A DNA stretch of 16,384 nucleotides from a virus. Taxonomy: Duplodnaviria; Heunggongvirae; Uroviricota; Caudoviricetes. Of the stretch, positions 1 to 13,703 are shown one piece after another. The translations under genes were made by a program, and so were the position numbers. The stretch is from the IMG/VR virus record IMGVR_UViG_2563367003_000001; one strand, written 5' to 3'. Below the pieces are notes generated by a model. The model saw only the letters and a list, made by a program, of their open reading frames with translations, searched no databases and was not told the origin of the DNA. Position 1 is the stretch's first letter; each line of letters begins with the position of its first letter.

Positions 1-2160
<2,160 letters not shown>

Positions 2161-2236
2161 ACATGAGTCAATGGTGTAAGTATGTGAATGATATAAGAGG
2201 AAAAATAGAGCATAATCTCTACCTGAATGGCTATGT

Positions 2237-2272
2237 TGCAATACACACTGCAATACACACTGCAATACACAG
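2237..2272 (+). repeat. Three tandem 12-bp direct repeats TGCAATACACAC/G (candidate integrase arm-type sites or operator)
   Basis: TGCAATACACAC TGCAATACACAC TGCAATACACAG; related copies near the other end of the element (13310..13350). Confidence 0.8.
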
Positions 2273-2331
2273 AAATCAATGTACAAACCATTCAATTATC
2301 AACCCACAAATGAAGTGAATAAAGATTTGTT

Positions 2332-3093
2332 ATGAATATTATAGATACCCTTCAAAATGACCTAGAGCGCGCAGTAGCGCTTCAAAACATACTAATTGCA
2401 AGAGCTACAGGAGCCCAGGATGAAGCTAATAATGATTATTTGCTTCTAAGAACATATTTCTTACAAAATCCTCCTTTACATCAGCTATTACCAGAGTTTG
2501 TGAGAACTAATCGCTCACTAAAAGAATTTTGGGGATTTATAAAAAAGACTGAAAAGTATGCCCCCCGGAGAGATTTGATTTATAAGGCATTTCAGCCGAT
2601 GCTGGATTATCTAGAAGGGAAAAATAAAGCTCCAGCGGATGAAGACATATCTGATGTATTAAGAAAGTTTAACGAGGATGGAGTCCACGCCGTTTGGATA
2701 AAAGCACTTGAACGGCGCCATACAGATCCGGATGGTGCGATAACCTCCGCAAGAACACTTCTTGAAACAGTTTGCAAACACATTCTTGATGATATGGGCA
2801 TTCAGTATAATAATAAAAATATTGAAATGTCAGAGCTTTATAAAACTCTTTCAAAAGAACTTAACCTATCTGCCGACCAACATACTGAAAATATCTTCAA
2901 ACAAATTCTCGGCGGTTGTTCTGCAGTTGTAAATGGGTTAGGTACTCTTCGTAATAAACTCGGTGATGCACATGGAACGAACAGCTCATCAATTAAGCCA
3001 TCCCCAAGGCATGCCGAACTTGCAGTAAATTTATCAGGCTCAATGGCTCTTTTTTTAATTAACACTTGGTTAAACCTTAAAGATGGGAAATAA
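2332..3093 (+). CDS. HEPN-domain protein with Rx6H motif (Abi_C / abortive-infection-like), 253 aa
   Basis: C-terminal motif GTLRNKLGDAHG fits the HEPN R-x(4-6)-H signature seen in AbiJ/AbiU2/Abi_C proteins. AT-rich gene in the cargo position of the element. Family assignment from motif memory only. Confidence 0.6.
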   Translation: MNIIDTLQNDLERAVALQNILIARATGAQDEANNDYLLLRTYFLQNPPLHQLLPEFVRTNRSLKEFWGFIKKTEKYAPRRDLIYKAFQPMLDYLEGKNKAPADEDISDVLRKFNEDGVHAVWIKALERRHTDPDGAITSARTLLETVCKHILDDMGIQYNNKNIEMSELYKTLSKELNLSADQHTENIFKQILGGCSAVVNGLGTLRNKLGDAHGTNSSSIKPSPRHAELAVNLSGSMALFLINTWLNLKDGK

Positions 3094-3179
3094 CGTATAA
3101 TGAAGTAACACGAGCAATTAGTTAATCATTATACTCAGTCGATTAATTTATTTTGACGACTCGTAAGCAATTTTTCGAT

Positions 3180-3199
3180 GAGGGCGGAACTCCGCCCTC
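3180..3199. repeat. Perfect palindrome GAGGGCGGA-ac-TCCGCCCTC in a 360-bp non-coding spacer
   Basis: 9-bp arms, 2-nt spacer; no flanking U-tract on either strand, so not a canonical intrinsic terminator. Confidence 0.4.
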
Positions 3200-3495
3200 G
3201 GTGCTAACCTATGAGAAACGATATCTCTTCCACCGATACCATAATATTAGGTATCGCGAAGAAGCCCCAAAATCAGTGTGTTGCTTTTACTACCCAAACT
3301 ACCTGTAGTTTCATAGTTGAGTTGCAAATTTGCAATTCGACTACCAGCCACAAGGCGTAAATTTGCGTCGTCAGGAATATCAACGAGTTAGCATATGAAT
3401 AGGCCAAACGGCCACAAACCTCACTTTTGAGGCTTGCTCATTTATTAGCTGGCTATGGTAAGGCCCATTTTGGGGCCGTCGAGAAAATCAAAGAG

Positions 3496-3771
3496 TTATC
3501 GCCGCAGTCTGTCAGGCTTCTTCCACTGGTACGATGCAACGTTCTGGCGTTGTCCCTGCCTCCGCCTAGCTGCCAGTATAGCCAGCACTTTGGTGCGGAT
3601 GACTAAGCAATCCTGTCCGTTCAGTTCTATACCGTCACGCCACATAACCTCAGCAACCACACGAGCGTAATTTTCAGCGGTGACACTGCCCGGCTGCGTG
3701 GCCTGTTCGTCATGCTGGTGGCTGACTCCACCAGCATAGCAGATTACTTTCAGTAGTTCGGATTCAGTCAT
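3496..3771 (-). CDS. Hypothetical protein (91 aa), last gene of the packaging operon downstream of terS
   Basis: ORF 12 bp after the Nu1-like stop, same strand. No recognised similarity; an overlapping plus-strand ORF 3455..3670 is less protein-like. Confidence 0.4.
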   Translation of the reverse strand: MTESELLKVICYAGGVSHQHDEQATQPGSVTAENYARVVAEVMWRDGIELNGQDCLVIRTKVLAILAARRRQGQRQNVASYQWKKPDRLRR

Positions 3772-3782
3772 AGCGTACTACG

Positions 3783-4310
3783 TTACTTATCCTTATTCAG
3801 CTGCAACTTATCCGGTACGTTTCCTGTACTTTCCATCAGATAATCAGCCAGTATCTGTGGGAGGTTGTCAGCAACGCCGGCACTGGCATTACAGGCTTTA
3901 GCCACTTCCTTTTTAAGTCCATCCAGCATAGCCGGAGTCATCTGTGGGAAGCGCCTTTGCATGGTAAGCGGCAGGCTGTCCATGATAGATGAAATCTGAC
4001 TCGCCAGTTTGGAAAGAACATACATACAAAACTCTGTATCAATAACGTCGCCGCGTTCGCGCTCGTTTTTAAGCTCCTGCGCCTCTGCCTGTGCTGTCAG
4101 TAATCTGATCCTGACGCGTAAAAGTTCATCGTCATCAATATCGCCCGTTTCGTTTGTAATCTGGCTGATTGCATTGTTAACCCGATTATCTATTACACTG
4201 GCAACATCATAGAACGCCTCACGGCCCTTACGCTCGACGGGAATCACTCCCCACTTATCGAACGCAGTGGCGCTTACACGGCAACTTTTTGCCATGTTTT
4301 TTTTGTTCAT
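3783..4310 (-). CDS. Small terminase subunit, lambda Nu1-like (satellite-encoded TerS)
   Basis: Middle and C-terminal regions align with lambda Nu1 from memory (AQAEAQELKNERERGDVIDTEFCMYVLSKLASQISSIMDSLPLTMQRRFPQ versus AQADAQELKNARDSAEVVETAFCTFVLSRIAGEIASILDGLPLSVQRRFPE). Sits ~150 bp downstream of the cos-like site, as in lambda. Start chosen at MNKKNMAK; ORF track extends to 4334. Confidence 0.8.
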   Translation of the reverse strand: MNKKNMAKSCRVSATAFDKWGVIPVERKGREAFYDVASVIDNRVNNAISQITNETGDIDDDELLRVRIRLLTAQAEAQELKNERERGDVIDTEFCMYVLSKLASQISSIMDSLPLTMQRRFPQMTPAMLDGLKKEVAKACNASAGVADNLPQILADYLMESTGNVPDKLQLNKDK

Positions 4311-4399
4311 CAGGTGTAATTTCATTGATACCACAACTTAATTACTGTTTCAGGTTGGTGTATTGATTGTATTTTTCTCTTATTATTCATACAGATATA

Positions 4400-4500
4400 G
4401 CGAACAACAAAACCACCACCAGTCCCCTTAAAATGCTCATAAATAGAGAAAACCCGCGCGCCTGACGCCCCGTAGCCTGTCAGATCGCCGGAAAGGACCC
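4400..4500 (-). other. Lambda-like cos site (cosQ-side flank, cosN-equivalent at 4459..4470, start of cosB)
   Basis: Minus strand reads GGGTCCTTTCCGGCGATCTGACAGGCTACG GGGCGTCAGGCG CGCGGGTTTTCTCTATTTATGAGCATTTT. Recalled lambda sequence is ...GGGTCCTTTCCGGTGATCCGACAGGTTACG GGGCGGCGACCT CGCGGGTTTTCGCTATTTATGAAAATTTT. Flanks are near-identical; the central 12-mer differs at ~5 positions. Confidence 0.7.
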
Positions 4501-4526
4501 GCCAGCCAGAGCGGGCCCTAATTTCA

Positions 4527-4910
4527 TCAACCAATCAGCTTATAGCGACCATCCCGTGCATTGCGGCGTACACGCTCAATCTTGAGGCATAGCGCCGCAT
4601 CTGGCTTTTTTGGGACAGGTACGCGGCAATATTCAGAAGCGCGAGGAATATTATTTATCCAGTCGATCACTTCACTTAAATACCAGGCCTTACGCCCTTC
4701 CGTAACCTGCACACGCTCCGGGAACTCTCCACTAGCCTCAAGGTTTAGCAGTGTACGCCGACTCAGGGTTGTAATTTCCATCACCTGATTCATATCAACA
4801 AGGCGCTCGCTTAAACACATTTTGTCAGCGATAGCTTTTAATTCCTCTACAGCTGGATTCGGGTACATCATTTCGGCAATTGGCTTAAGGTCATTGTAAT
4901 CATTCTGCAT
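4527..4910 (-). CDS. AlpA/MerR-like HTH DNA-binding protein (127 aa), between the decoration gene and cos
   Basis: MEITTLSRRTLLNLEASGEFPERVQVTEGRKAWYLSEVIDWINN fits the AlpA-family HTH pattern. RBS GGGGGA 5 nt upstream of ATG at 4910. Function (regulator versus packaging factor) unknown. Confidence 0.6.
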   Translation of the reverse strand: MQNDYNDLKPIAEMMYPNPAVEELKAIADKMCLSERLVDMNQVMEITTLSRRTLLNLEASGEFPERVQVTEGRKAWYLSEVIDWINNIPRASEYCRVPVPKKPDAALCLKIERVRRNARDGRYKLIG

Positions 4911-4921
4911 TGTATCCCCCT

Positions 4922-5263
4922 TTACACACGAGCCAGCGGCTGAACAGAAATACCTGAGCCAACAAACGCGGCAACCTTTGCCGACAGTTCTCTTACAGAC
5001 TCAGGCCAGTTCAGAGCATCAACATTTAAAACACCTGTCTTATAAACCTGTGCCTGTGTTTTTTTCGCTGTGTCGATTTGTACAGCGGAAACATAAACCG
5101 CTTTGCCTGCGCTCGTTCCATCCCATACCACTAGCGCACCAGTTGCATCTTCCTGCATCAGTGGCGTAAACGCAGGTATTACCCCTTTATTGGCTGAAAA
5201 TATCCCCAGCGTAGTAACCAGTGCTTCAGTGCCAGACATGAGTTCAGTGTAATGAGTAGCCAT
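4922..5263 (-). CDS. Head decoration protein, lambda gpD-like (satellite-encoded)
   Basis: 113 aa; AFTPLMQEDATGALVVWDGTSAGKAVYVSAV...QVYKTGVLNVDALNWPES...AFVGSGISV parallels lambda gpD ([31 protein letters not shown]...[18 protein letters not shown]...[10 protein letters not shown]). Strong RBS AAGGGGGAG. Confidence 0.8.
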   Translation of the reverse strand: MATHYTELMSGTEALVTTLGIFSANKGVIPAFTPLMQEDATGALVVWDGTSAGKAVYVSAVQIDTAKKTQAQVYKTGVLNVDALNWPESVRELSAKVAAFVGSGISVQPLARV

Positions 5264-5272
5264 TGCTCCCCC

Positions 5273-6313
5273 TTAGCCAATGCGAACGGTAACAAAACGA
5301 TTGATGCGGGCCGGTATTGGCTGTGGTGCTGAATGTGTCTGCACATATTCAATAGCCGGATCACCAGGCACAATATAGTTTTTCGGTGCAAGTTCGGCTT
5401 TAGTCAGCCCCATTCGGATTAGCTCCGGATCCTGAATACCGCCATAGGCGACAATCCCCTGAAGAGCCGTATTGCCAAGCACCATCAAATCAGGATCAAG
5501 GAAATGTTTTTCAGTTCCGTCCTCGTCGGTATAACGCCCGCTGTATACAACAATCGCAACATCGCCCATATACCCTTTAAAACTCACCGAATCACCAAGG
5601 TCTTTAAGGGCCGTTTCCAGTTCGGAATTAGAACCACGACGGGTATCCAGAGCCTCTTTTATCGCTCTGAATGAACGGTATTTCTTCCATACATTACCGC
5701 CCATAATGATGATATTAGTGACGCCCTCACTAAATTCTGCGTAGCTCTCAATATCATCATTTGGATCAAAAGTTTCTTTATCCTTACCTGACCACTCAGC
5801 ACCGCCAGACTGAGTGATGATATTTTGTGGTTTAATATTCCAGTCCAGCTCATAACGTTCAATACCATCGCCCTCAATGATATTTTTCCCCGTTGTGATT
5901 GCCTGAACGGCAAGCCATTCAATACGTGCACGAATAGCTTTAGCCTGATTTACAATCGCCTGTTTAACTTTAATATTACGCGCTCCAAAAGCATTGTATT
6001 GCTCAGGTGATACACCAGCAGGGCGCACAGCTAACTTATTTGGATCAATGCTGCTTTTCGGCTTCATATAGCCTGGACGAATTGTTTTTGATTCGTACCC
6101 TTCGTCACGTGAAACTTTACTACCCACCATAGGAGAACAAAACGCTGCAATTGGGATATTTGGATCGTCGATTGTATCAAGAATAATATCGCGCGATTCA
6201 AACATTACCGAGCGAGTAAAAAACAAACTGGTAAACAACGCATTTAGTTGTTTTTGTACATCTACAGCATTAACCACCTGTACAAGCTGGGTAGGCGAAT
6301 ATAAATCAACCAT
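5273..6313 (-). CDS. Major capsid protein, lambda gpE-family homolog (divergent, satellite-encoded)
   Basis: Shares blocks with lambda gpE: ITQSGGAEWSGKDKETFDPNDDIESYA, RRGSNSELETALKDLG, GDVAIVVYSG, GYMKPK. Start set at MVDLYSPTQ (RBS AAGAGG); ORF track extends upstream to 6487. Confidence 0.85.
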   Translation of the reverse strand: MVDLYSPTQLVQVVNAVDVQKQLNALFTSLFFTRSVMFESRDIILDTIDDPNIPIAAFCSPMVGSKVSRDEGYESKTIRPGYMKPKSSIDPNKLAVRPAGVSPEQYNAFGARNIKVKQAIVNQAKAIRARIEWLAVQAITTGKNIIEGDGIERYELDWNIKPQNIITQSGGAEWSGKDKETFDPNDDIESYAEFSEGVTNIIIMGGNVWKKYRSFRAIKEALDTRRGSNSELETALKDLGDSVSFKGYMGDVAIVVYSGRYTDEDGTEKHFLDPDLMVLGNTALQGIVAYGGIQDPELIRMGLTKAELAPKNYIVPGDPAIEYVQTHSAPQPIPARINRFVTVRIG

Positions 6314-6487
6314 ACGCATCCTCTTTGCATTCATTAAAAATAATTGTGGATATATGCTATCACCGATATTTGTCATGCGAATACATGCAACCGAGTGCAA
6401 TGTTGTATAAAGTTTTGGGATGACAACTTCAGCACGGATAATTAGTGTTAATATCTTCACTCCCTTTGGTCTGGATTTATGTAGCAT

Positions 6488-6521
6488 GCCGGAAAATTTA
6501 TTTTTTTTCCGGCCTTTTTTA
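6488..6521 (+). terminator. GC-stem hairpin with T-tract (plus-strand orientation) between ssb and the capsid gene
   Basis: GCCGGAAAA-tttatttt-TTTTCCGGC followed by CTTTTTTA on the plus strand; on the minus strand the hairpin is not followed by a U-run. Confidence 0.4.
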
Positions 6522-6531
6522 TTGGCAATAT

Positions 6532-6981
6532 TTAAAACGGAATATCATCTCCCCATTGCTCATTATCTCCCACTGGTGGATGGCTTCCTTGCTGATCTGC
6601 CTGTTGTTTTGCTCTGTTCAGTGCGTCAGTAGCCTGACCCTGTTGATCTTTTTTGCCGCCCGGTCGCACCGTTCGCGCACTGATTACGCTGTCTGCGATA
6701 ACCTGCCAGCCCTGCCGCGTTTCACCGTTCTGTCCAGTCCACTGGCTCACCTGCATATTACCCGCCACGCTCAGGAGTTCGCCTTTGTGATGCTTTGCCA
6801 GCGTGTCGGCTTGTCTGCCAAACGCCAGCACAGATAACCACATCGTCGCCGTTCCGTCATCTGCCTGGCTGCATGGCAAAGATACCGCCATCCGTGCCAG
6901 TGTCATGGGTGTTCCCTTGCTGGTATGTTTTACCTGTGGGTCGTCCACCAGCCGCCCGTAAGCTGCTATTTGCGCCGTCAT
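6532..6981 (-). CDS. ssb: Single-stranded DNA-binding protein (SSB) with C-terminal acidic tip ...WGDDIPF
   Basis: 149 aa; OB-fold-like N-terminus (AYGRLVDDPQ...), Gln/Gly-rich linker, and the DDIPF tail characteristic of bacterial/phage SSBs (E. coli SSB ends DDDIPF). Confidence 0.8.
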   Translation of the reverse strand: MTAQIAAYGRLVDDPQVKHTSKGTPMTLARMAVSLPCSQADDGTATMWLSVLAFGRQADTLAKHHKGELLSVAGNMQVSQWTGQNGETRQGWQVIADSVISARTVRPGGKKDQQGQATDALNRAKQQADQQGSHPPVGDNEQWGDDIPF

Positions 6982-6992
6982 GCTGCCTGCTC

Positions 6993-7235
6993 TCAGGACT
7001 TAATATTGATGGTTGTCACTTCCTCCGCTTCGGCAATCTCCCGTTCGGTCAGCGTGGCAAAGTTTGCAGCCGCCGTTGTCATGAATGCGCTTATCAGTTC
7101 GGGATGTGCTTTCGCGTATCCTTCCCCGGCGTTGCGGTCTATTGCCTTAATCGCCACCCTTAGCCAGTGTTCAGCCATATCAAGGGCGCGGTAATGTGGC
7201 TTTATATGTTTGTTCAGTTTTCCTGATGTGTGCAT
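6993..7235 (-). CDS. Hypothetical protein (80 aa) immediately downstream of the iteron origin
   Basis: ORF with GAGGGGG RBS ~10 nt upstream; no recognised domain. Confidence 0.45.
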   Translation of the reverse strand: MHTSGKLNKHIKPHYRALDMAEHWLRVAIKAIDRNAGEGYAKAHPELISAFMTTAAANFATLTEREIAEAEEVTTINIKS

Positions 7236-7280
7236 TTTTATTTTTACCCCCTCGTTTAAAAAGTTTTTTGTGCACCACCA

Positions 7281-7510
7281 CCTTGTCTACCTTGTCTACC
7301 TGATTAGTTATCAGGCCAGTAATGGCGCGGGTTTCAGGGAGGTAGACAGCCCCAAATAGCTGTCTACCTCATCTCTACCCGTCTCCTTACCTGTCTACAA
7401 AAATGGGTAGATAAGGTAGATAACAGGTAGACAGTGAAAAATAGTTATCTACCTGCATTAATACATTGAAATAAAAGTATTTTATTTCAGTCAGGTAGAC
7501 AAGGTAGATA
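7281..7510. repeat. Replication origin: iteron array (>=11 copies of GGTAGAYA/TRTCTACC in both orientations) plus AT-rich segment
   Basis: CTTGTCTACCTTGTCTACC (7282..7300), GGTAGACAG (7341), TGTCTACC (7361), CTGTCTAC (7391), GGTAGATAAGGTAGATAACAGGTAGACAG (7407..7434), TATCTACC (7447), GGTAGACAAGGTAGATAAC (7493..7511); AT-rich 7457..7490. Lies directly 3' of the helicase gene. Confidence 0.8.
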
Positions 7511-7524
7511 ACCATTGCCATTTT

Positions 7525-9276
7525 TTATAAAAACGCATCGCAATCATCAGTAGTCGTTGCGTTGGTCTGCGTGACTCCCTTAACTTTTCGCGTAATATAT
7601 TCATATCCGTAAACTTTCGCCGCTGACCTCATAGCCTTTCCGAACTCATTCACGCTCAAACATTTCCCCTTTCCTGTATATGCCATGAAGGCCATATAGA
7701 CACGGTAAAGGCTGTTTCTGGTCGTGTACTTCACGGTGTCACCACCACCGCCCATCATTAGCCCACGAGCTTCCTCCAGAAACTCCAGCGCCGCGCAAAG
7801 CTCAACAACCGGATCCGTTTGCTGCTTTATTGCCAGAGCTTCATCACCGTCACGCTGTTCCAGTAATAAAGCCCGTGCCTTTTCAGGGTCAGCAAAATTA
7901 GCCAGCAAGCGGCGGATAATTACGGGGATTTCTGCCGCTATCTTTTCCGGTAATTCCTTGTCTTTTTCGTCCTCCCTTACAATGTTGTCGAACCGGAAAA
8001 TCACCCGACGGCGTGACACACCTCCGGCCCGTTCGGTAAAGATCATCGGGTCGTTATTGGTTGCCAGTACCACCGCCCTTATTATCGTCGTGAATCGCTT
8101 CTCATATTTCGGGTTAATTTCAACGGGATCGCCTCCCGTGATTTTCTTGATGCCCGTGCCTTCCCCCGTATATTTCGGCTGATCGGCAAGGACGATAAGA
8201 CGACTCCCGACAACCTGCGCACGCCCTCCTGCATCATCGAGTGATGTCATCTCTGCGCTTACGGTGTTCTGTTTGCCAGCAAGCAGGGTGGCAATATGGG
8301 TAAATGTACTCTTACCGCTTCCCCCGTCTCCGGTGGCCTCAATGAACATCTGCCAGTCGTACCGGTTCGCCATAATCATGTACAGCGCGGCACATATACG
8401 CATCATCTTGCGCGGGTCTTTTCCGGCTGCGTGCTCAAGCCATTTATGAAAGTTTGGCGCGTTATCGCGGATGTTCTCCCCTGGTGCTGGTGGCGTGTAC
8501 TCAATGCCGTTGTGCGTGGTGATCCAGTTCTCCGGCGTGTGCGGGGAAAATTCCCCCGTTTTCAGGTCAAGCGCACCATTGGCGAACGGCAGCAAATCGC
8601 CGGACGGCTCGCCCATTGGTTCGGCAATAACTTTTAACGCTTCAACGGCGTTATTGATCACGCGTTTGCTGAAAGTGGCCCTGTGCTCTGAATAGATCGC
8701 CACCATTTCGCGGCTCAGCTCCATTGTGCTGATCGGACACCATACCCCGCCGCGCCATACGTGAACGATTTCACTTTCCGGATGCACACAAACGCCATCA
8801 AAGCGCTCGGCAAGCAGCTGCGCGCGCTCACTGTCTGCCATCTGTGAAAGTTGCGCCTTTTGCTTCGTCGGAAGATTAAGCACCAGGCTTTCCCCACGCT
8901 CGCATTCCTCTTTGAGTCGCGGCAACTGGTCGGATAAATCCACTGGGCTGGTGTCAGTAATCCCCGCGTATTCGTGTACGGTCTTCACTCCAGCCACAGC
9001 CAGTAACGTAACAATCTGCGTCATGCTGTGCTCTGTGATATGTCCTGCGCGGTAAACACGCACACACTGACGATCTTCATCAATGATCCGGTAATCGGTG
9101 ATGTTTTTCAGTTGCTCATCAGCCAACACGACAGGCGGCACATCGTCGGCGGCAATATGTTTACCCGCCCATTCCTGCCACTCTTTCGCATGGCTCCACG
9201 CATCACTACCTGCAAAGATGATTATCTCTGTCAGTCTGTCGCGTGGCTGTTTTTTTAAGTTCGGTGCCAGTTTCAT
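7525..9276 (-). CDS. Replication initiator: SF3 helicase of the D5 / P4-alpha family (primase-helicase-like), 583 aa
   Basis: Walker A GDGGSGKST and surrounding D5_N/P4-alpha C-terminal-like sequence; followed by the iteron origin. The N-terminal ~250 aa may be a primase-like domain (not verified). Confidence 0.75.
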   Translation of the reverse strand: MKLAPNLKKQPRDRLTEIIIFAGSDAWSHAKEWQEWAGKHIAADDVPPVVLADEQLKNITDYRIIDEDRQCVRVYRAGHITEHSMTQIVTLLAVAGVKTVHEYAGITDTSPVDLSDQLPRLKEECERGESLVLNLPTKQKAQLSQMADSERAQLLAERFDGVCVHPESEIVHVWRGGVWCPISTMELSREMVAIYSEHRATFSKRVINNAVEALKVIAEPMGEPSGDLLPFANGALDLKTGEFSPHTPENWITTHNGIEYTPPAPGENIRDNAPNFHKWLEHAAGKDPRKMMRICAALYMIMANRYDWQMFIEATGDGGSGKSTFTHIATLLAGKQNTVSAEMTSLDDAGGRAQVVGSRLIVLADQPKYTGEGTGIKKITGGDPVEINPKYEKRFTTIIRAVVLATNNDPMIFTERAGGVSRRRVIFRFDNIVREDEKDKELPEKIAAEIPVIIRRLLANFADPEKARALLLEQRDGDEALAIKQQTDPVVELCAALEFLEEARGLMMGGGGDTVKYTTRNSLYRVYMAFMAYTGKGKCLSVNEFGKAMRSAAKVYGYEYITRKVKGVTQTNATTTDDCDAFL

Positions 9277-9572
9277 TTTTTGCCCCTGAATGCGTTAATC
9301 ATGCTTTTCATTTTCTGGATGTTTCCCCGCGCTTTTTCCCTGCTGATGGGCTTACTGCGGGGTGCGGCATATACCAGGGAAAAATCACGCCGGAACTGAT
9401 AAACAGGCATCACGCAGTCATAGCTATACCCCTCACGACGGTAAGTGATGCGCCGTTCTGCCACGCCTTTAATCGTTACCGTGCCGCCGTATTTATCGCG
9501 GTAAATATCGCCGTTCATAAATTCAGGCCGAGCGGGGCCGCTGGCAATAAAGCCAGAATTTTTCATTTCCAT
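9273..9572 (-). CDS. Hypothetical protein (99 aa), translationally coupled to the helicase gene (ATGA overlap)
   Basis: ORF in operon context; no recognised motif. Confidence 0.45.
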   Translation of the reverse strand: MEMKNSGFIASGPARPEFMNGDIYRDKYGGTVTIKGVAERRITYRREGYSYDCVMPVYQFRRDFSLVYAAPRSKPISREKARGNIQKMKSMINAFRGKK

Positions 9573-9589
9573 ATTATTTATTCCTCGAC

Positions 9590-9811
9590 TTAACTCGACT
9601 TATTTGATAGCAGGGCACTATTTATTGCGTCATTGAGTTTTTCTGCTGCTTCATCAATAAGTGACAACAGGCCATAAGCAATATTTGCATCTTCATTGTC
9701 ATTTATGCAATCAAGCCACATATTTAATATTGCTTTTGCTGAATTATTTAAAGTTAATGAACTTTCTGCACATGCTAACAATTTAAAAAAGACTTCCCGT
9801 TCTGTATTCAT
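9590..9811 (-). CDS. Hypothetical protein (73 aa), AT-rich
   Basis: ORF in operon context; composition differs from neighbours. Confidence 0.4.
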   Translation of the reverse strand: MNTEREVFFKLLACAESSLTLNNSAKAILNMWLDCINDNEDANIAYGLLSLIDEAAEKLNDAINSALLSNKSS

Positions 9812-10003
9812 TTAATCCCCCACCAGCTTACTTTCTTCCTCAATCAAAAAACTAGCGACACTTCCCGAAAGACGCGCCAGTAGGCTCGCCAGTGCGGATA
9901 TATCAGCATCTGTAATTTTGTTCGGGTATACCTCAAGAAGGCGGCAAATAATTTCTGTCTGGTGCGCACGTTCAGCGGCTTCGTGTAATGTGATTTCCTG
10001 CAT
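9812..10003 (-). CDS. Hypothetical protein (63 aa)
   Basis: ORF abutting the next gene with no spacer (stop/start coupling). Confidence 0.4.
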   Translation of the reverse strand: MQEITLHEAAERAHQTEIICRLLEVYPNKITDADISALASLLARLSGSVASFLIEEESKLVGD

Positions 10004-10188
10004 TAATGCACCTCTTTTAATTCATACACTGCTGAAATAATGACTTGTGATAAGCCATATTCTGATGATTCGCTTCTCACCGCAGCAATAGCCGTCTGAA
10101 CATTAACAGCCTTCACATTCTGAGCGATACCAATTGTGTGGCCTATTGGGTTAACAGCTCGGGCAAATACACGGAAGGTTTTAAGCAT
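10003..10188 (-). CDS. Hypothetical protein (61 aa)
   Basis: Start ATG overlaps the stop of the upstream 65-aa ORF (ATGCTTAA). Confidence 0.4.
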   Translation of the reverse strand: MLKTFRVFARAVNPIGHTIGIAQNVKAVNVQTAIAAVRSESSEYGLSQVIISAVYELKEVH

Positions 10189-10378
10189 GACTCACTCCCT
10201 GGCGGATTTTTGCAGCGAATACAGCAACACAACCGGACGGGCAACGGCTACGCGCTTCGCGTTCCGTCCAGGCGGTTACGTGGATGATTTGAGATTCTCC
10301 GGCACTCAGTGCCAGAAAACGCCACACAAAGGCCGTTTGTGTGTGTACAAGGTGTGGTATATGATTTACAGCAACCAT
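10181..10378 (-). CDS. Hypothetical protein (65 aa), first gene of the leftward operon
   Basis: Strong RBS AGGAGCCGTT-ATG. It is the 3' part of the 243-aa ORF 10181..10912 in the track; only the portion downstream of this RBS is considered real. Confidence 0.5.
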   Translation of the reverse strand: MVAVNHIPHLVHTQTAFVWRFLALSAGESQIIHVTAWTEREARSRCPSGCVAVFAAKIRQGVSHA

Positions 10379-10390
10379 AACGGCTCCTAG

Positions 10391-10568
10391 TTTACGTTGT
10401 TGGTTAGACGCCCCGTATGTGTTCCCAGCACTGCGGGGCGTTGCTCTTTGTATTTCAACAATTCTTTCGGTGTGTTTCATGTTATGAGCGCATGAAACAC
10501 ACGTCAAGGCTTTTTGTATTTCTTTTTTTGTGTATACTGAAACACACCGATGATTAGGAGTTTCAGAA
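10391..10568. promoter_or_regulatory. Divergent promoter/operator region between the leftward operon and the rightward RHH gene
   Basis: Inverted repeat GACGCCCCG...CGGGGCGT (10408..10440); palindrome TGTGTTTCATG...CATGAAACACA (10472..10500); second direct copy TGAAACACACC (10539..10549); -10-like TATACT (10531..10536); RBS AGGAG before ATG at 10569. Confidence 0.55.
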
Positions 10569-10874
10569 ATGGCAACGGCTAACAAAAACGCAAAATCACA
10601 ACTGACAACTGTCAGAGTCCCACTAGATGTTATGCAAGGGATGGAATCCGTTAAGCTGGACGGTGAAAGCAATGCCGGATTTATCGTAACCGCCATGCGC
10701 GGTGAAATCGCCCGCCGCCAGGCAGAAGGAAGCGGAGAAAATCCCCTCGTGTCTTCACTGGATGCCTTAGCTAAGGTCGAACAAATCGGCATCAAGGCAG
10801 CGGAGGAAATCGGGCAACTCGTAGCCGTCGCTCGTGAAGAACTCCAGCGGCGTAAAGCCAAAGAATCTGAATAA
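10569..10874 (+). CDS. Putative ribbon-helix-helix-type transcriptional regulator (101 aa)
   Basis: N-terminal beta-strand/helix pattern (TTVRVPLDVMQGMESVKLD...NAGFIVTAMRGEIARR) plus coiled C-terminus. AGGAG RBS. Divergent from the replication operon. Fold assignment is inference. Confidence 0.5.
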   Translation: MATANKNAKSQLTTVRVPLDVMQGMESVKLDGESNAGFIVTAMRGEIARRQAEGSGENPLVSSLDALAKVEQIGIKAAEEIGQLVAVAREELQRRKAKESE

Positions 10875-11224
10875 TTAGTATCAGCGCCGTGATGTGAGTA
10901 ACTACGGCGCATTGCTATGTAAATACTGGCAATAAACAGAAAAGGTAGTTCTACTCCGAATAATTTTATCTGACACTACTCCTGAACTAACATGCGCTTA
11001 TCTTACAGGATATAAATATAAATCCATAAAATCACGATTAAATAAAGTCGCTCCAAACATAAACCACACCCAACGCTTAACAAGATAGCAACAAACAGGT
11101 AAATAACTTGCAGAAATATTTATCGCAAGGATTATCATTATTAATGACAAATCACTTTACCAAGTCATTCCCCTCTCTTATCATAAAGAGAAAGTAATAA
11201 ATAAGTTAAGGGAGTTAGAATGCT

Positions 11225-11761
11225 ATGAATCTAAAAAAAATAGCCACAAACACAAAAAACAAGATAACAGAAACATTTAATAAACTTATATTAGAGGCAT
11301 CTAAAACCCCCACACAAGATGAAATTAAAATACTTGAGAGAAGGAGTAAGAAGTTTAATTACTCCTTTTTCTCATACGCAGTCACAGGAGCTATAATAGT
11401 TTTTTGCTCTCAACCATTAATTAAATACGCAAACCCAATACTTATTTTATTGAGTGGTCTGTTACTGTCTATCATCATTATCATTCTCAGAATGATTTAT
11501 ATTTCACAAGCGAATGCATCATGGACAACCAAAAAACGCTCACATGTACTAGTTCATTTTCTTTCTGCATGTTTCATAGCATCAACATTGACGTTGCTAT
11601 ATCAGGCTTACGATAATAACATCACACACAAATTGTACTGTAAAAATATACAACAACTTATTGAAAAAAGGATAGAAACAGAAAAAAACATCAGCATATT
11701 CAGTGGGATGCAATGCACCCCGGTATATGATTACTCTTTATTTGGATTTAATCTCTTATAA
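11225..11761 (+). CDS. Small membrane protein (178 aa, ~3 predicted TM helices), very AT-rich cargo gene
   Basis: Hydrophobic segments FFSYAVTGAIIVFCSQPLI, ILILLSGLLLSIIIIILRMIYI, VLVHFLSACFIASTLTLLY. Strongly AT-rich versus the flanks. No recognised family. Confidence 0.55.
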   Translation: MNLKKIATNTKNKITETFNKLILEASKTPTQDEIKILERRSKKFNYSFFSYAVTGAIIVFCSQPLIKYANPILILLSGLLLSIIIIILRMIYISQANASWTTKKRSHVLVHFLSACFIASTLTLLYQAYDNNITHKLYCKNIQQLIEKRIETEKNISIFSGMQCTPVYDYSLFGFNLL

Positions 11762-11770
11762 AGAATGTTA

Positions 11771-11804
11771 TTACTGATTTGAGTACAAATTCTCAAATCA
11801 GTAA
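11771..11804. terminator. Bidirectional intrinsic terminator hairpin between convergent genes
   Basis: 13-bp perfect stem TTACTGATTTGAG / CTCAAATCAGTAA with 8-nt loop, A/T-rich flanks on both sides; lies between the plus-strand membrane-protein gene and the minus-strand alpA gene. Confidence 0.65.
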
Positions 11805-11830
11805 TTCATAATATTTTATTCTGAGATAAT

Positions 11831-12058
11831 TTAAACTACCCACTCACCTCGAATCCATGCCTGCACTTCTGAAAGACGATATGCAACAGCAGTGGAACCA
11901 ATCTTGATCCGCTTAGGAAATTTTCCTTCCTTCTCCAGCTTCCAGCGTGTGCTGTTCGCAAGAGTGGTTAGCTCCCGACATTCTTTCTCACGGATCATTC
12001 GGTCAATGTTAGGAATGTACTCCAGACCCTTTTTATCAACAATTGCCATTTTTTTCAT
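11831..12058 (-). CDS. alpA: AlpA-family HTH protein (excisionase/Vis-like regulator), 75 aa
   Basis: IREKECRELTTLANSTRWKLEKEGKFPKRIKIGSTAVAYRLSEVQAWI fits the AlpA pattern; immediately downstream of the integrase gene. Confidence 0.8.
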   Translation of the reverse strand: MKKMAIVDKKGLEYIPNIDRMIREKECRELTTLANSTRWKLEKEGKFPKRIKIGSTAVAYRLSEVQAWIRGEWVV

Positions 12059-12059
12059 G

Positions 12060-13295
12060 TTAACCAGCCTTTTGTTTGAGGATTGTCACTTTTGAATCAG
12101 CACCTGCGATGCTATTGAGATATGTAGTCCAGAGTTCCAGAGCATCCAGTTTTTTAGCCATAAACTTACTCCGGTTGTAAACACCTGCCACGCCAGGTAG
12201 CGCATGGCCTAACAGTTGTTCTACTACATAAAATTCAACACCGAGATCACTTAGATGAGTAGATAGCGTTCTTCTAAGGTCGTGTAGTGACCATTGTTTT
12301 TCATGGCCCAAACGTTTACCGATTTTCCCCCCAATCTTGCTTACGCTTTCTCTAATTCGCAGACTTCCCAGCACATAACCAGTATGTTTTGTCTCTTCGT
12401 GAACATCCGTTACCCACTGTCGTAGAATTTCAGGTACTGGTCTGACGATTTCAACACCAGTTTTTGAGTGATCTTTTGGTACAGTCCAAACCCAACTTTC
12501 GAGATCCCATTCGCTCCATTCTGATAATCGGGCTTCACTCATTCGACATCCAAATACTGTACAAAGCACAAACATTTTTCGCGTGTATTCAGACATTAGT
12601 TTTAAATCAGGCTCGACAAAAATTGCCTTCCAGAGCTGGCCGAGTTCGGCTTCATCCAGAACCCGATCCCGCTTACCTGCAATCTGCCCCACATCACTCA
12701 TGCGCAAATCCTTTAAAGCATCACACGTCGCGTACTGGCGTACCCGACAAAAACGAAGAGCTAATTTAGTGTCAGAAAAAACATACGCCGCCATAACTGG
12801 TGCATTACGTTTAATTCGGTCAAAACAGTCCAGCCATTCATATAGGTGAGTGTCATTTACGGGCAAATGACCGATATAGGGAAAGATATGCTTTCGAAAT
12901 CTGCCAAGCGTTACAGCATGAGTTTTACGACGCACCTTACAGTAATTTTCATACCAGTAATTTAGTGCATCCTCCACTGTAACCGGCTTTAAGCGTTCTT
13001 CAGCCTGAATCTTAATCTGGATACGCGGATCACGTTTGTCAGCCAACCAACCACGGCACTCGTCGCGCTTTTCCCTTGCCTGTTTGAGTGACATATCAGG
13101 ATATTTACCCAACGTTAGCCAGACCGGAGCAGCCCGGCCACCTGCTAACCTGTAGAAGAAAACAAAGCTCACAGCCCCTTTAGTACTCACACGAATAGAA
13201 AGCCCCTTTCCATCAGCAATGGTGATCTGCTTTTCTCTGGGTTTCCCCAGATATCCTTTAAGCGCTTTGTCGCTCAGTTTGTTCTCGCCAGCCAT
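12060..13295 (-). CDS. int: Tyrosine site-specific integrase, P4-type
   Basis: N-terminal arm-binding-like region (LSDKALKGYLGKPREKQITIADGKGLSIRVSTKGAVSFVFFYR), catalytic-box residues (HDLRRT, LLGHA...GVYNRS). Start set at MAGENKLSDK; ORF track extends to a GTG at 13346. Confidence 0.9.
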   Translation of the reverse strand: MAGENKLSDKALKGYLGKPREKQITIADGKGLSIRVSTKGAVSFVFFYRLAGGRAAPVWLTLGKYPDMSLKQAREKRDECRGWLADKRDPRIQIKIQAEERLKPVTVEDALNYWYENYCKVRRKTHAVTLGRFRKHIFPYIGHLPVNDTHLYEWLDCFDRIKRNAPVMAAYVFSDTKLALRFCRVRQYATCDALKDLRMSDVGQIAGKRDRVLDEAELGQLWKAIFVEPDLKLMSEYTRKMFVLCTVFGCRMSEARLSEWSEWDLESWVWTVPKDHSKTGVEIVRPVPEILRQWVTDVHEETKHTGYVLGSLRIRESVSKIGGKIGKRLGHEKQWSLHDLRRTLSTHLSDLGVEFYVVEQLLGHALPGVAGVYNRSKFMAKKLDALELWTTYLNSIAGADSKVTILKQKAG

Positions 13296-13309
13296 TTTTA
13301 GCCCCAAAA

Positions 13310-13350
13310 AGCAATACAAGCTGCAATACAGAGATGATTGCAACACACAG
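13310..13350 (+). repeat. Direct repeats related to TGCAATACA (AGCAATACA, TGCAATACA, TGCAACACA) upstream of int
   Basis: Same motif and orientation as the 3x12-bp array at 2237..2272 at the opposite end of the element. Confidence 0.7.
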
Positions 13351-13457
13351 ATAACGAGGAAAATTCAGTGAAAGCACCAGATAAACTTATTCTTTATTAT
13401 CAAAAGATTAAGTGTAAAAACCAGCAACTACACGAAAGCCTCAGAAAGCCATGCTAA

Positions 13458-13703
13458 GTGCTTCGGCTTGACATATCCCGGCGTAAATTCAGAGGTGGAG
13501 CCGCCACGGGAGCGGATAACCTCACCGGAAACAATCGGCGAAACGTACAGCGCCATGTTTACCAGCCCCGGAATTTGTGAGAGATAGACTTTCTCCGTGG
13601 TGAAGGGATAGCTCTCACGGAAAAAGAGACGCAGAAACAGCGGATCAAACTTAAATTTCTGCTCATTTGCCGCCAGCAGCTGGGCGGTTGTGTACATCGA
13701 CAT
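13458..13703 (-). pseudogene. E: Lambda-like major capsid protein E, N-terminal fragment (residues 1 to ~91), interrupted by the inserted element
   Basis: MSMYTTAQLLAANEQKFKFDPLFLRLFFRESYPFTTEKVYLSQIPGLVNMALYVSPIVSGEVIRSRGGSTSEFTPGYVKPKH matches the lambda gpE N-terminus; the frame then reads 9 unrelated codons (LAWLSEAFV) into the element and stops at 13428. Confidence 0.9.
13459..13468. repeat. Right junction core (attR-like): TGCTTCGGCT
   Basis: Identical to 2151..2160; lambda E sequence continues on the high-coordinate side. Confidence 0.7.

Follow-up and report, generated by a model that had tools for sequence, protein, structure and literature searches.

A probable helper-embedded satellite within E, the major capsid gene of a lambda-like prophage

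How a lambda-type prophage comes to carry its major capsid gene E in two pieces, with an integrase, a replication module and a second capsid gene between them, is the question raised by a 16,384-nucleotide stretch of Caudoviricetes DNA (IMG/VR virus record IMGVR_UViG_2563367003_000001; the whole of this stretch is referred to here as the window). In an initial annotation, the intervening DNA had been described as a satellite-like integrative element inserted into a helper-type prophage's capsid gene. The present analysis assigns this element, with a probability of roughly 0.93, to the helper-embedded phage-inducible chromosomal islands (HE-PICIs) of the published site group E:Phage_cap_E:80. 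The arrangement itself is already known, having been described in 2023 together with an induction test, and the window holds another copy of it. In such composites, a phage parasite is lodged in the capsid gene of its own helper, which would build no heads until the satellite leaves.

The insertion is defined by the following features (window coordinates):

13459..13703, minus strand: helper E 5' fragment, codons 1-82, ending in the core (MSMYTT…GYVKPKH)
13459..13468: att core on the integrase side, TGCTTCGGCT; the block is also found in the PMC10111431 supplement for E_Phage_cap_E_80 HE-PICIs
13311..13347, minus strand: arm-type motif TGTATTGC on the integrase side, exact at 13311-13318 and 13323-13330, with a mismatched copy at 13340-13347
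2238..2269, minus strand: arm-type motif TGTATTGC on the distal side, three tandem 12-bp units, ~82 bp from the core centre
2151..2160: att core at the distal end of the element, TGCTTCGGCT
1370..2160, minus strand: helper E 3' fragment, codon 79/80 to the stop (PKHEVNPQ…VSVQLA*)

The split proposed for E is borne out, since two minus-strand E fragments are present and each ends at a copy of the 10-mer TGCTTCGGCT, which reads agccgaagca on the coding strand. This 10-mer occurs exactly twice in the window (2151-2160 and 13459-13468), in both cases at a break point of the lambda-type E gene; 0.06 copies would be expected by chance, and two or more were seen in none of 200 shuffles. The core corresponds to codons 79-82 of E (K-P-K-H). 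The codon ranges originally given for the two fragments, 1-91 and ~89-341, were nine too high because counting had begun at an in-frame GTG that precedes the true ATG. At homologous loci, the 5' fragment is annotated as "major capsid protein, missing C-terminus"; its frame reads on through nine foreign codons of the element (…KPKH-LAWLSEAFV*), and the 3' fragment lacks a start codon. Without its cores the element is 11,298 bp long, and with one core included it is 11,308 bp; GC content falls from ~0.55-0.6 in the flanks to ~0.39-0.45 at both of its ends. When the element is removed in silico by joining 1370..2160 to 13469..13703, a 1026-nt sequence is obtained that encodes an in-frame, 341-residue E protein ending in ...VSVQLA*, in agreement with the earlier proposal that precise excision regenerates an intact reading frame. 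The restored product is identical at 338 of 341 residues to what we take to be the sequence of lambda gpE. On excision, the attP junction is predicted to read …CTAAGTGCTTCGGCTACATGAG… (also given as …GCCATGCTAAGTGCTTCGGCTACATGAGTCAATGG…) and the restored-E junction …CTCATGCTTCGGCTTGACATA… (also given as …ATTCACCTCATGCTTCGGCTTGACATATCCCGG…).

The element points the same way as the late operon, with int, alpA and the primase gene all on the minus strand like E. Its neighbours are D, C and B to one side and FI to the other, and it brings no replacement E sequence, so that the helper E gene is broken for as long as the element remains integrated.

Natural counterparts of both the empty and the occupied site were found in complete Escherichia coli genomes. 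The reconstructed empty site (495 nt) matched uninterrupted "major capsid protein" genes with 100% identity in at least 10 of these genomes, and an intact site was present in 3100 of 5426 (coverage of at least 80%). Using a 495-nt probe for the integrase-side occupied junction and the same coverage threshold, 172 of the 5426 genomes were positive. RefSeq annotation of four occupied loci (strains 200177, GN06489, ST69 and NRG857c) shows the same architecture, in which two partial "major capsid protein" pseudogenes within a lambda-like late operon bracket an insert encoding an integrase, a helix-turn-helix (HTH) protein (AlpA), a primase, SSB, a complete capsid protein, a decoration protein and variable cargo. 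A 99.6%-identical full-length copy was also recovered from an independent IMG/VR contig (L049). When the complete element was compared by megablast with 50,697 phage records, no match was returned, indicating that the element has not been deposited there as a phage.

The site group E:Phage_cap_E:80 was described by Tommasini, Mageeney & Williams (2023, NAR Genom Bioinform; PMC10111431), with Eco567.11capE (hereafter 11capE) of E. coli NRG857c as its type element. This is an 11-kb PICI within a near-lambda E gene of an icd-integrated prophage, possessing its own capsid gene and a 10-bp attL/attR identity block, and about 200 copies are known at the site (PMC10111431). Upon treatment with mitomycin C, the composite of helper and satellite was excised and replicated, and precise excision of 11capE was recorded 2-3 h after mitomycin C, with attB and attP detected by quantitative PCR and deep sequencing and with excision reaching 42-98% of composites (PMC10111431).

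Several features connect the window element with this group. Its integrase is identical to that of 11capE (taken from NC_017634) at 410 of 411 residues (99.8%), which indicates membership in the HE-PICI cap_E subclade without the need for a phylogeny. The identity block agccgaagca occurs at least 85 times in the PMC10111431 supplementary table, where it is given as that of E_Phage_cap_E_80 elements. A doubled TGTATTGC motif specific to HE-PICIs has been reported on both sides of the attP centre, 81±2 bp away upstream and 132±2 bp away downstream (PMC10111431), and in the window the integrase-side pair (13311-13330) lies ~133 bp from the core centre, with the distal units at the distance given above. 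The role originally assigned to the 10-mer, as the att core of tyrosine-integrase recombination, is borne out. The distal side carries three TGTATTGC units rather than the two present in ST69, GN06489, 200177 and 11capE, and this extra unit accounts for a 12-bp difference in length from 99.3%-identical copies. Three zones of the published four-zone plan stand out clearly (Integration, Replication and Late), and the fourth, Bro, is not recognisable. General features of Gram-negative PICIs are present, including a length of 11.3 kb, where about 10-15 kb is expected, int with AlpA, a primase, iterons, a cos-like site and the lack of tail and lysis genes. The use of a capsid gene as an attachment site, regarded by the initial annotation as unusual, is indeed so when compared with P4- and PICI-type integrases in general, but it belongs to a site group that had already been described.

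All components of the earlier gene list (integrase, AlpA, replication module, cos/TerS and capsid homologs) are present. From the integrase end to the distal end, the element comprises (aa, amino acids):

12060..13295, minus strand: tyrosine integrase, 411 aa, with Arm-DNA-bind_3 and Phage_integrase domains
11831..12058, minus strand: AlpA, 75 aa, excisionase/regulator adjoining int (Pfam Phage_AlpA, E = 2.8e-15)
11225..11761, plus strand: 178-aa hypothetical protein in the variable zone after alpA, with no significant family
10569..10874, plus strand: YlcI/YnfO-family protein, 101 aa (RefSeq annotation of the 99.9%-identical locus L001)
10181..10378, minus strand: Icd-like cell-division inhibitor, 65 aa (RefSeq annotation of L001; no Pfam match)
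9273..10188, minus strand: three small open reading frames (61, 63 and 73 aa), then a DUF4222 protein (99 aa)
7525..9276, minus strand: primase/replication protein, 583 aa (D5_N, DUF5906, Pox_D5)
7284..7512: iteron cluster immediately 3' of the primase gene, with GGTAGACA / GGTAGATAA repeats in either orientation
6993..7235, minus strand: 80-aa hypothetical protein
6532..6981, minus strand: SSB
5273..6313, minus strand: satellite major capsid homolog, 346 aa, full-length (Phage_cap_E; 42% identical to helper E)
4922..5263, minus strand: gpD-type head decoration protein, 113 aa (Pfam HDPD, E = 4.6e-15)
4527..4910, minus strand: second AlpA-family HTH protein, 127 aa, adjoining cos (only significant PDB match, AlpA-family 8c3t)
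4430..4501, minus strand: cos-like site, in which the 12-mer aligned with the helper cosN is GGGCGTCAGGCG (4459-4470)
3783..4334, minus strand: Nu1-type small terminase subunit (Pfam Phage_Nu1, E = 1.1e-24; PHROG 57, terminase small subunit)
3496..3771, minus strand: 91-aa hypothetical protein (PHROG 1561)
2332..3093, plus strand: AbiJ-like abortive-infection cargo at the distal end (Abi_C, E = 1.3e-23, Pfam; AbiJ, E = 2.2e-21, PADLOC)

When all annotated open reading frames were searched against Pfam and PHROG, neither portal, protease and head-tail connector genes nor large terminase, tail and lysis genes were detected in the element; lacking a portal, a protease, a large terminase, tails and lysis functions, the gene set is that of a satellite rather than that of a phage. 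The iteron cluster is the probable replication origin, and its position agrees with the placement of PICI origins described in PMC6092414. In the satellite capsid gene, the DNA equivalent to the att site matches the core at 7 of 10 positions and has different flanks; integration of such an element into its own capsid gene is likewise argued to be unlikely in PMC10111431. An RppA/RppC-type packaging redirector was considered and rejected, since the only PDB match of the 127-aa HTH protein is an AlpA-family structure and none was obtained for the small terminase. No Rfam match to the C4 or isrK immunity RNAs was obtained in the element, either at the gathering threshold or at E ≤ 1. Directly after alpA, a hairpin with a 14-bp stem (11770-11805, minus strand) resembles a terminator with a poor T tract, and it could act as a regulated stop that separates the integration module from the remainder of the element.

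The cos-like site deserves separate consideration. Canonical lambda cosN (GGGCGGCGACCT) was not found in the window at up to two mismatches, and the site was located by aligning the cos region of the NRG857c helper. The 12-mer at the aligned position is GGGCGTCAGGCG in the window element, in 11capE and in most cap_E HE-PICIs, and cosN of the helper is canonical GGGCGGCGACCT in four of four hosts of such elements (NRG857c, 200177, GN06489 and ST69). Among 13 loci compared, the variant is kept in nine, each of which is an HE-PICI copy. When viral contigs were scanned (57 stretches), it was mostly found beside satellite HTH, capsid and decoration genes, and in three contigs it was the cos of a lambdoid phage contig. 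One of these three (L058) has an intact E gene and a gpA that is 99% identical to a helper gpA, and its cos-Nu1 region agrees with that of the NRG857c helper at 96.9% identity except for the 12-mer. The loci bearing on the variant are:

4459-4470, minus strand: GGGCGTCAGGCG in the window
Other loci: L004, L071-L073, L058, L024 and L069

A decayed cos site is ruled out by the conservation of GGGCGTCAGGCG in HE-PICIs and by its use as cos in lambdoid contigs with intact E and gpA. The variant is most likely a neutral cosN polymorphism tolerated by the same terminase. There is a slim chance that the mismatch might be functional, either insulating the embedded cos from premature cutting within the replicating composite or biasing packaging towards another helper; neither point was found in PMC10111431. 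The new question that the window raises is limited to this small cosN observation.

A working cycle may be proposed for the composite. The integrase would have recombined the 10-bp attP core with the K-P-K-H codons (79-82) of E in a lambda-like prophage. SOS induction would then de-repress the helper, and the composite of helper and satellite would be excised and replicated; subsequently, Int and AlpA would excise the satellite precisely, yielding a circular satellite and an intact E gene. The satellite would replicate by means of its own primase and iteron origin, after which its cos would be cut and its DNA packaged by the helper terminase (helper gpA), probably assisted in this variant by the satellite Nu1-type small subunit and its matching cosB. 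Finally, helper portal, protease, tail and lysis functions would complete the particle, with the satellite E- and D-type proteins possibly contributing to, or replacing, the helper capsid shell. The first two steps, induction of the composite and precise excision, were demonstrated for the type element 11capE only (PMC10111431); for replication, packaging and particle completion, and for the activity of this copy, the scheme is one that we infer. Passive replication and read-through by the late transcript have also been proposed (PMC10111431), and the fact that no terminator-like site is predicted between the E 5' fragment and int is weakly consistent with such read-through. The switch originally envisaged, whereby the prophage can build capsids only after the element has been excised, agrees with the published model for the same element family. 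At this locus, a productive phage may not be regained by excision of the satellite alone, given the state of the helper, for which two further features are relevant:

1..1261, minus strand: IS3-family insertion sequence (IS), outside the satellite and running off the left end of the window (orfA 875-1222, orfB 9-1055)
1262..1328, minus strand: first ~22 codons of helper FI, cut by the IS (homology to three intact helpers stops at 1262)

The IS3-family element carries HTH_Tnp_1 and rve domains and has a terminal …CA, and it is absent at this point from the near-identical L049 contig and from related helpers. Wholly within its orfA lies a full-length Rfam match to isrC (1068-1190, minus strand; 150 bits, E = 3.8e-37), where the isrC model is matching transposase-gene sequence. 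On the opposite side of the satellite, the right flank comprises D, the gene for the C protease and a portion of the portal gene B, and it aligns collinearly and without gaps with the helper of NRG857c (97.6% identity). An interruption of the helper portal gene, prompted by an open reading frame listed as ending within the window, was also considered and dismissed, since three-frame translation gives one open frame to the window edge.

Several of these points, together with others, weigh against the reading of the locus as a working HE-PICI. Helper FI is cut by the IS3-family element, so the prophage may be defective regardless of the satellite, and the window covers only 16 kb of that prophage. 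No plaque-forming particles were recovered for either the type helper or its satellite (PMC10111431). In addition, the zone after alpA encodes no Bro-N domain protein and contains no C4 or isrK RNA, leaving the Bro zone of the published plan unrecognisable; the same genes, 97.6% identical, occupy this zone in 11capE. None of this contradicts classification as an HE-PICI, and the doubts bear on activity at this locus.

The main rival accordingly concerns activity rather than identity, and it is compatible with the element being an HE-PICI: the satellite may be trapped in a decaying prophage, as part of a composite that is no longer inducible or productive. We regard this as possible rather than probable. 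Apart from the IS insertion ~22 codons into FI, lesions are known from relatives, since the GN06489 helper portal gene has an internal stop and the ST69 helper tape-measure gene is frameshifted; furthermore, many HE-PICI helpers have been reported to look truncated, and plaques were not obtained (PMC10111431). The second lesion, in FI, will not be repaired by excision of the satellite, which alone may not restore a productive phage in this genome. On the other hand, the att cores, arm motifs, int and alpA are all intact, the integrase is 99.8% identical to that of an element shown to excise, and a stranded element could still be mobilised by an incoming helper. The capsid switch may be moot for this copy, yet the satellite could be able to respond to another helper.

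A different proposal is that the element benefits the host, acting as a lock on the prophage or as a defence island that is kept because it disables the capsid gene and carries an Abi gene, rather than because the satellite spreads. Its attraction lies in the distal end of cap_E HE-PICIs, which constitutes a cargo slot in which the candidate defence gene varies with the variant: AbiJ-like in the window and in ST69, DUF2971 in 200177, and HEPN plus DUF262 / GmrSD_N in NRG857c and L013. The coordinates of this slot at four loci are:

2332-3093, plus strand: window
4436-5194: L001
13537-15253: L003
19996-20871: L005

A second slot follows alpA and holds a TIR-domain gene in the ST69 element versus the 178-aa hypothetical protein in the window. 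This proposal is nevertheless quite improbable. The full mobility and packaging set has been kept (int, alpA, primase, origin, cos, small terminase and capsid homologs), and the modules are shuffled among many strains and different late-gene sites, which indicates active horizontal spread. Moreover, defence cargo is common in satellites and is compatible with satellite behaviour.

Classification as a P4-type satellite or as a capsid-forming PICI (cf-PICI), rather than as an HE-PICI, is highly improbable. In its favour are a P4-alpha-like primase (D5_N/DUF5906), an annotated Icd-like gene, and capsid and decoration genes of the element's own. However, no Sid, Psu or Delta family match was obtained with Pfam or PHROG for any element protein, and C4/isrK RNA was not found, both of which speak against P4; the cf-PICI alternative is opposed by the failure to find portal, protease, head-tail connector and large terminase genes in the element. 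Finally, nothing was found in favour of an assembly artefact, or of ancestral phage DNA lacking discrete boundaries, and this reading is ruled out for practical purposes by the recurrence of the same junction in 172 complete genomes, the 100% identity of empty sites across the join and the drop in GC content at both element ends.

The preferred assignment to the HE-PICIs of site group E:Phage_cap_E:80 is best appreciated by comparison with 11capE. Both elements occupy the same target codons in a lambda-type E gene, with the 10-bp identity block at the same position, and they agree in arm-motif spacing, orientation relative to the late operon and helper type. The integration/variable zone is 97.6% identical between them, and the capsid/decoration/HTH zone 97.4% identical. 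They differ in the core itself, which is TGCTTGGGTT (aacccaagca on the coding strand) in 11capE versus TGCTTCGGCT in the window, two synonymous codon variants that are both present in the PMC10111431 supplement. The primase module shows only ~74% DNA identity over a 302-bp match, and the distal end is unrelated: 11capE lacks terS and carries HEPN and DUF262 proteins, whereas the window copy has a Nu1-type small terminase, a different cosB region and AbiJ-like cargo.

The divergent modules can be traced to other elements. The distal module (AbiJ-like gene, 91-aa open reading frame, and Nu1-type terminase with cosB) is found at 99.3% identity in 41 complete genomes, including the ST69 HE-PICI, which has a different middle region. 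A primase protein identical (100%) to that of the window also occurs in the portal-gene HE-PICIs L011 and L012, implying that replication modules have been exchanged between site groups. In L011 and L012, the helper portal gene is split at 4904-5785 and 16575-17348, and these loci have a 413-aa integrase that differs from the window's, together with a Bro-N protein and canonical cosN. In terms of its sequence, the window element is a reshuffled mosaic of catalogued modules. What the window adds is one such mosaic copy, distinguished by its own small terminase, AbiJ-like cargo, three arm-motif units and an IS-hit helper. The ST69 locus (L005; E. coli ST69, NZ_CP102488.1; junctions at ~11499 and ~22535) has unlike cores, TGCTTCGGCT at its distal junction and TGCTTGGGTT at the junction next to the integrase, which suggests either that strands were exchanged within or next to the TGCTT common to both or that the E fragment later underwent gene conversion.

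Beyond its own site group, the window element resembles the Gram-negative PICI EcCICFT073 (Fillol-Salom et al. 2018, PMC6092414; 2019, PMC6739421) in size class, in the use of lambdoid cos helpers, and in the order of int, alpA, primase/origin, E-type capsid and decoration homologs, and cos. EcCICFT073 differs in occupying a chromosomal site apart from its helper and in redirecting the helper TerS with RppA; in the window element, no Rpp-like protein was detected and a small terminase of its own is present. With P4 it shares a P4-alpha-like primase, an Icd-like gene, a length of ~11 kb and cos packaging, and its integrase belongs to the broader P4/PICI clade (PMC10111431). It differs from P4 in that Sid, Psu, Delta and CI RNA were not found in the element, in targeting a phage late gene instead of a tRNA gene, and in having a lambdoid rather than a P2-like helper.

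A further parallel is offered by active lysogeny, or regulated gene integrity, in which an integrative element splits a protein-coding gene without bringing a replacement end and precise excision restores it. In Listeria, the host gene comK is restored in this way by phage excision. In the present system, by contrast, it is a gene of another mobile element, the helper phage, that is interrupted, and the satellite is the proposed beneficiary of the regulation.

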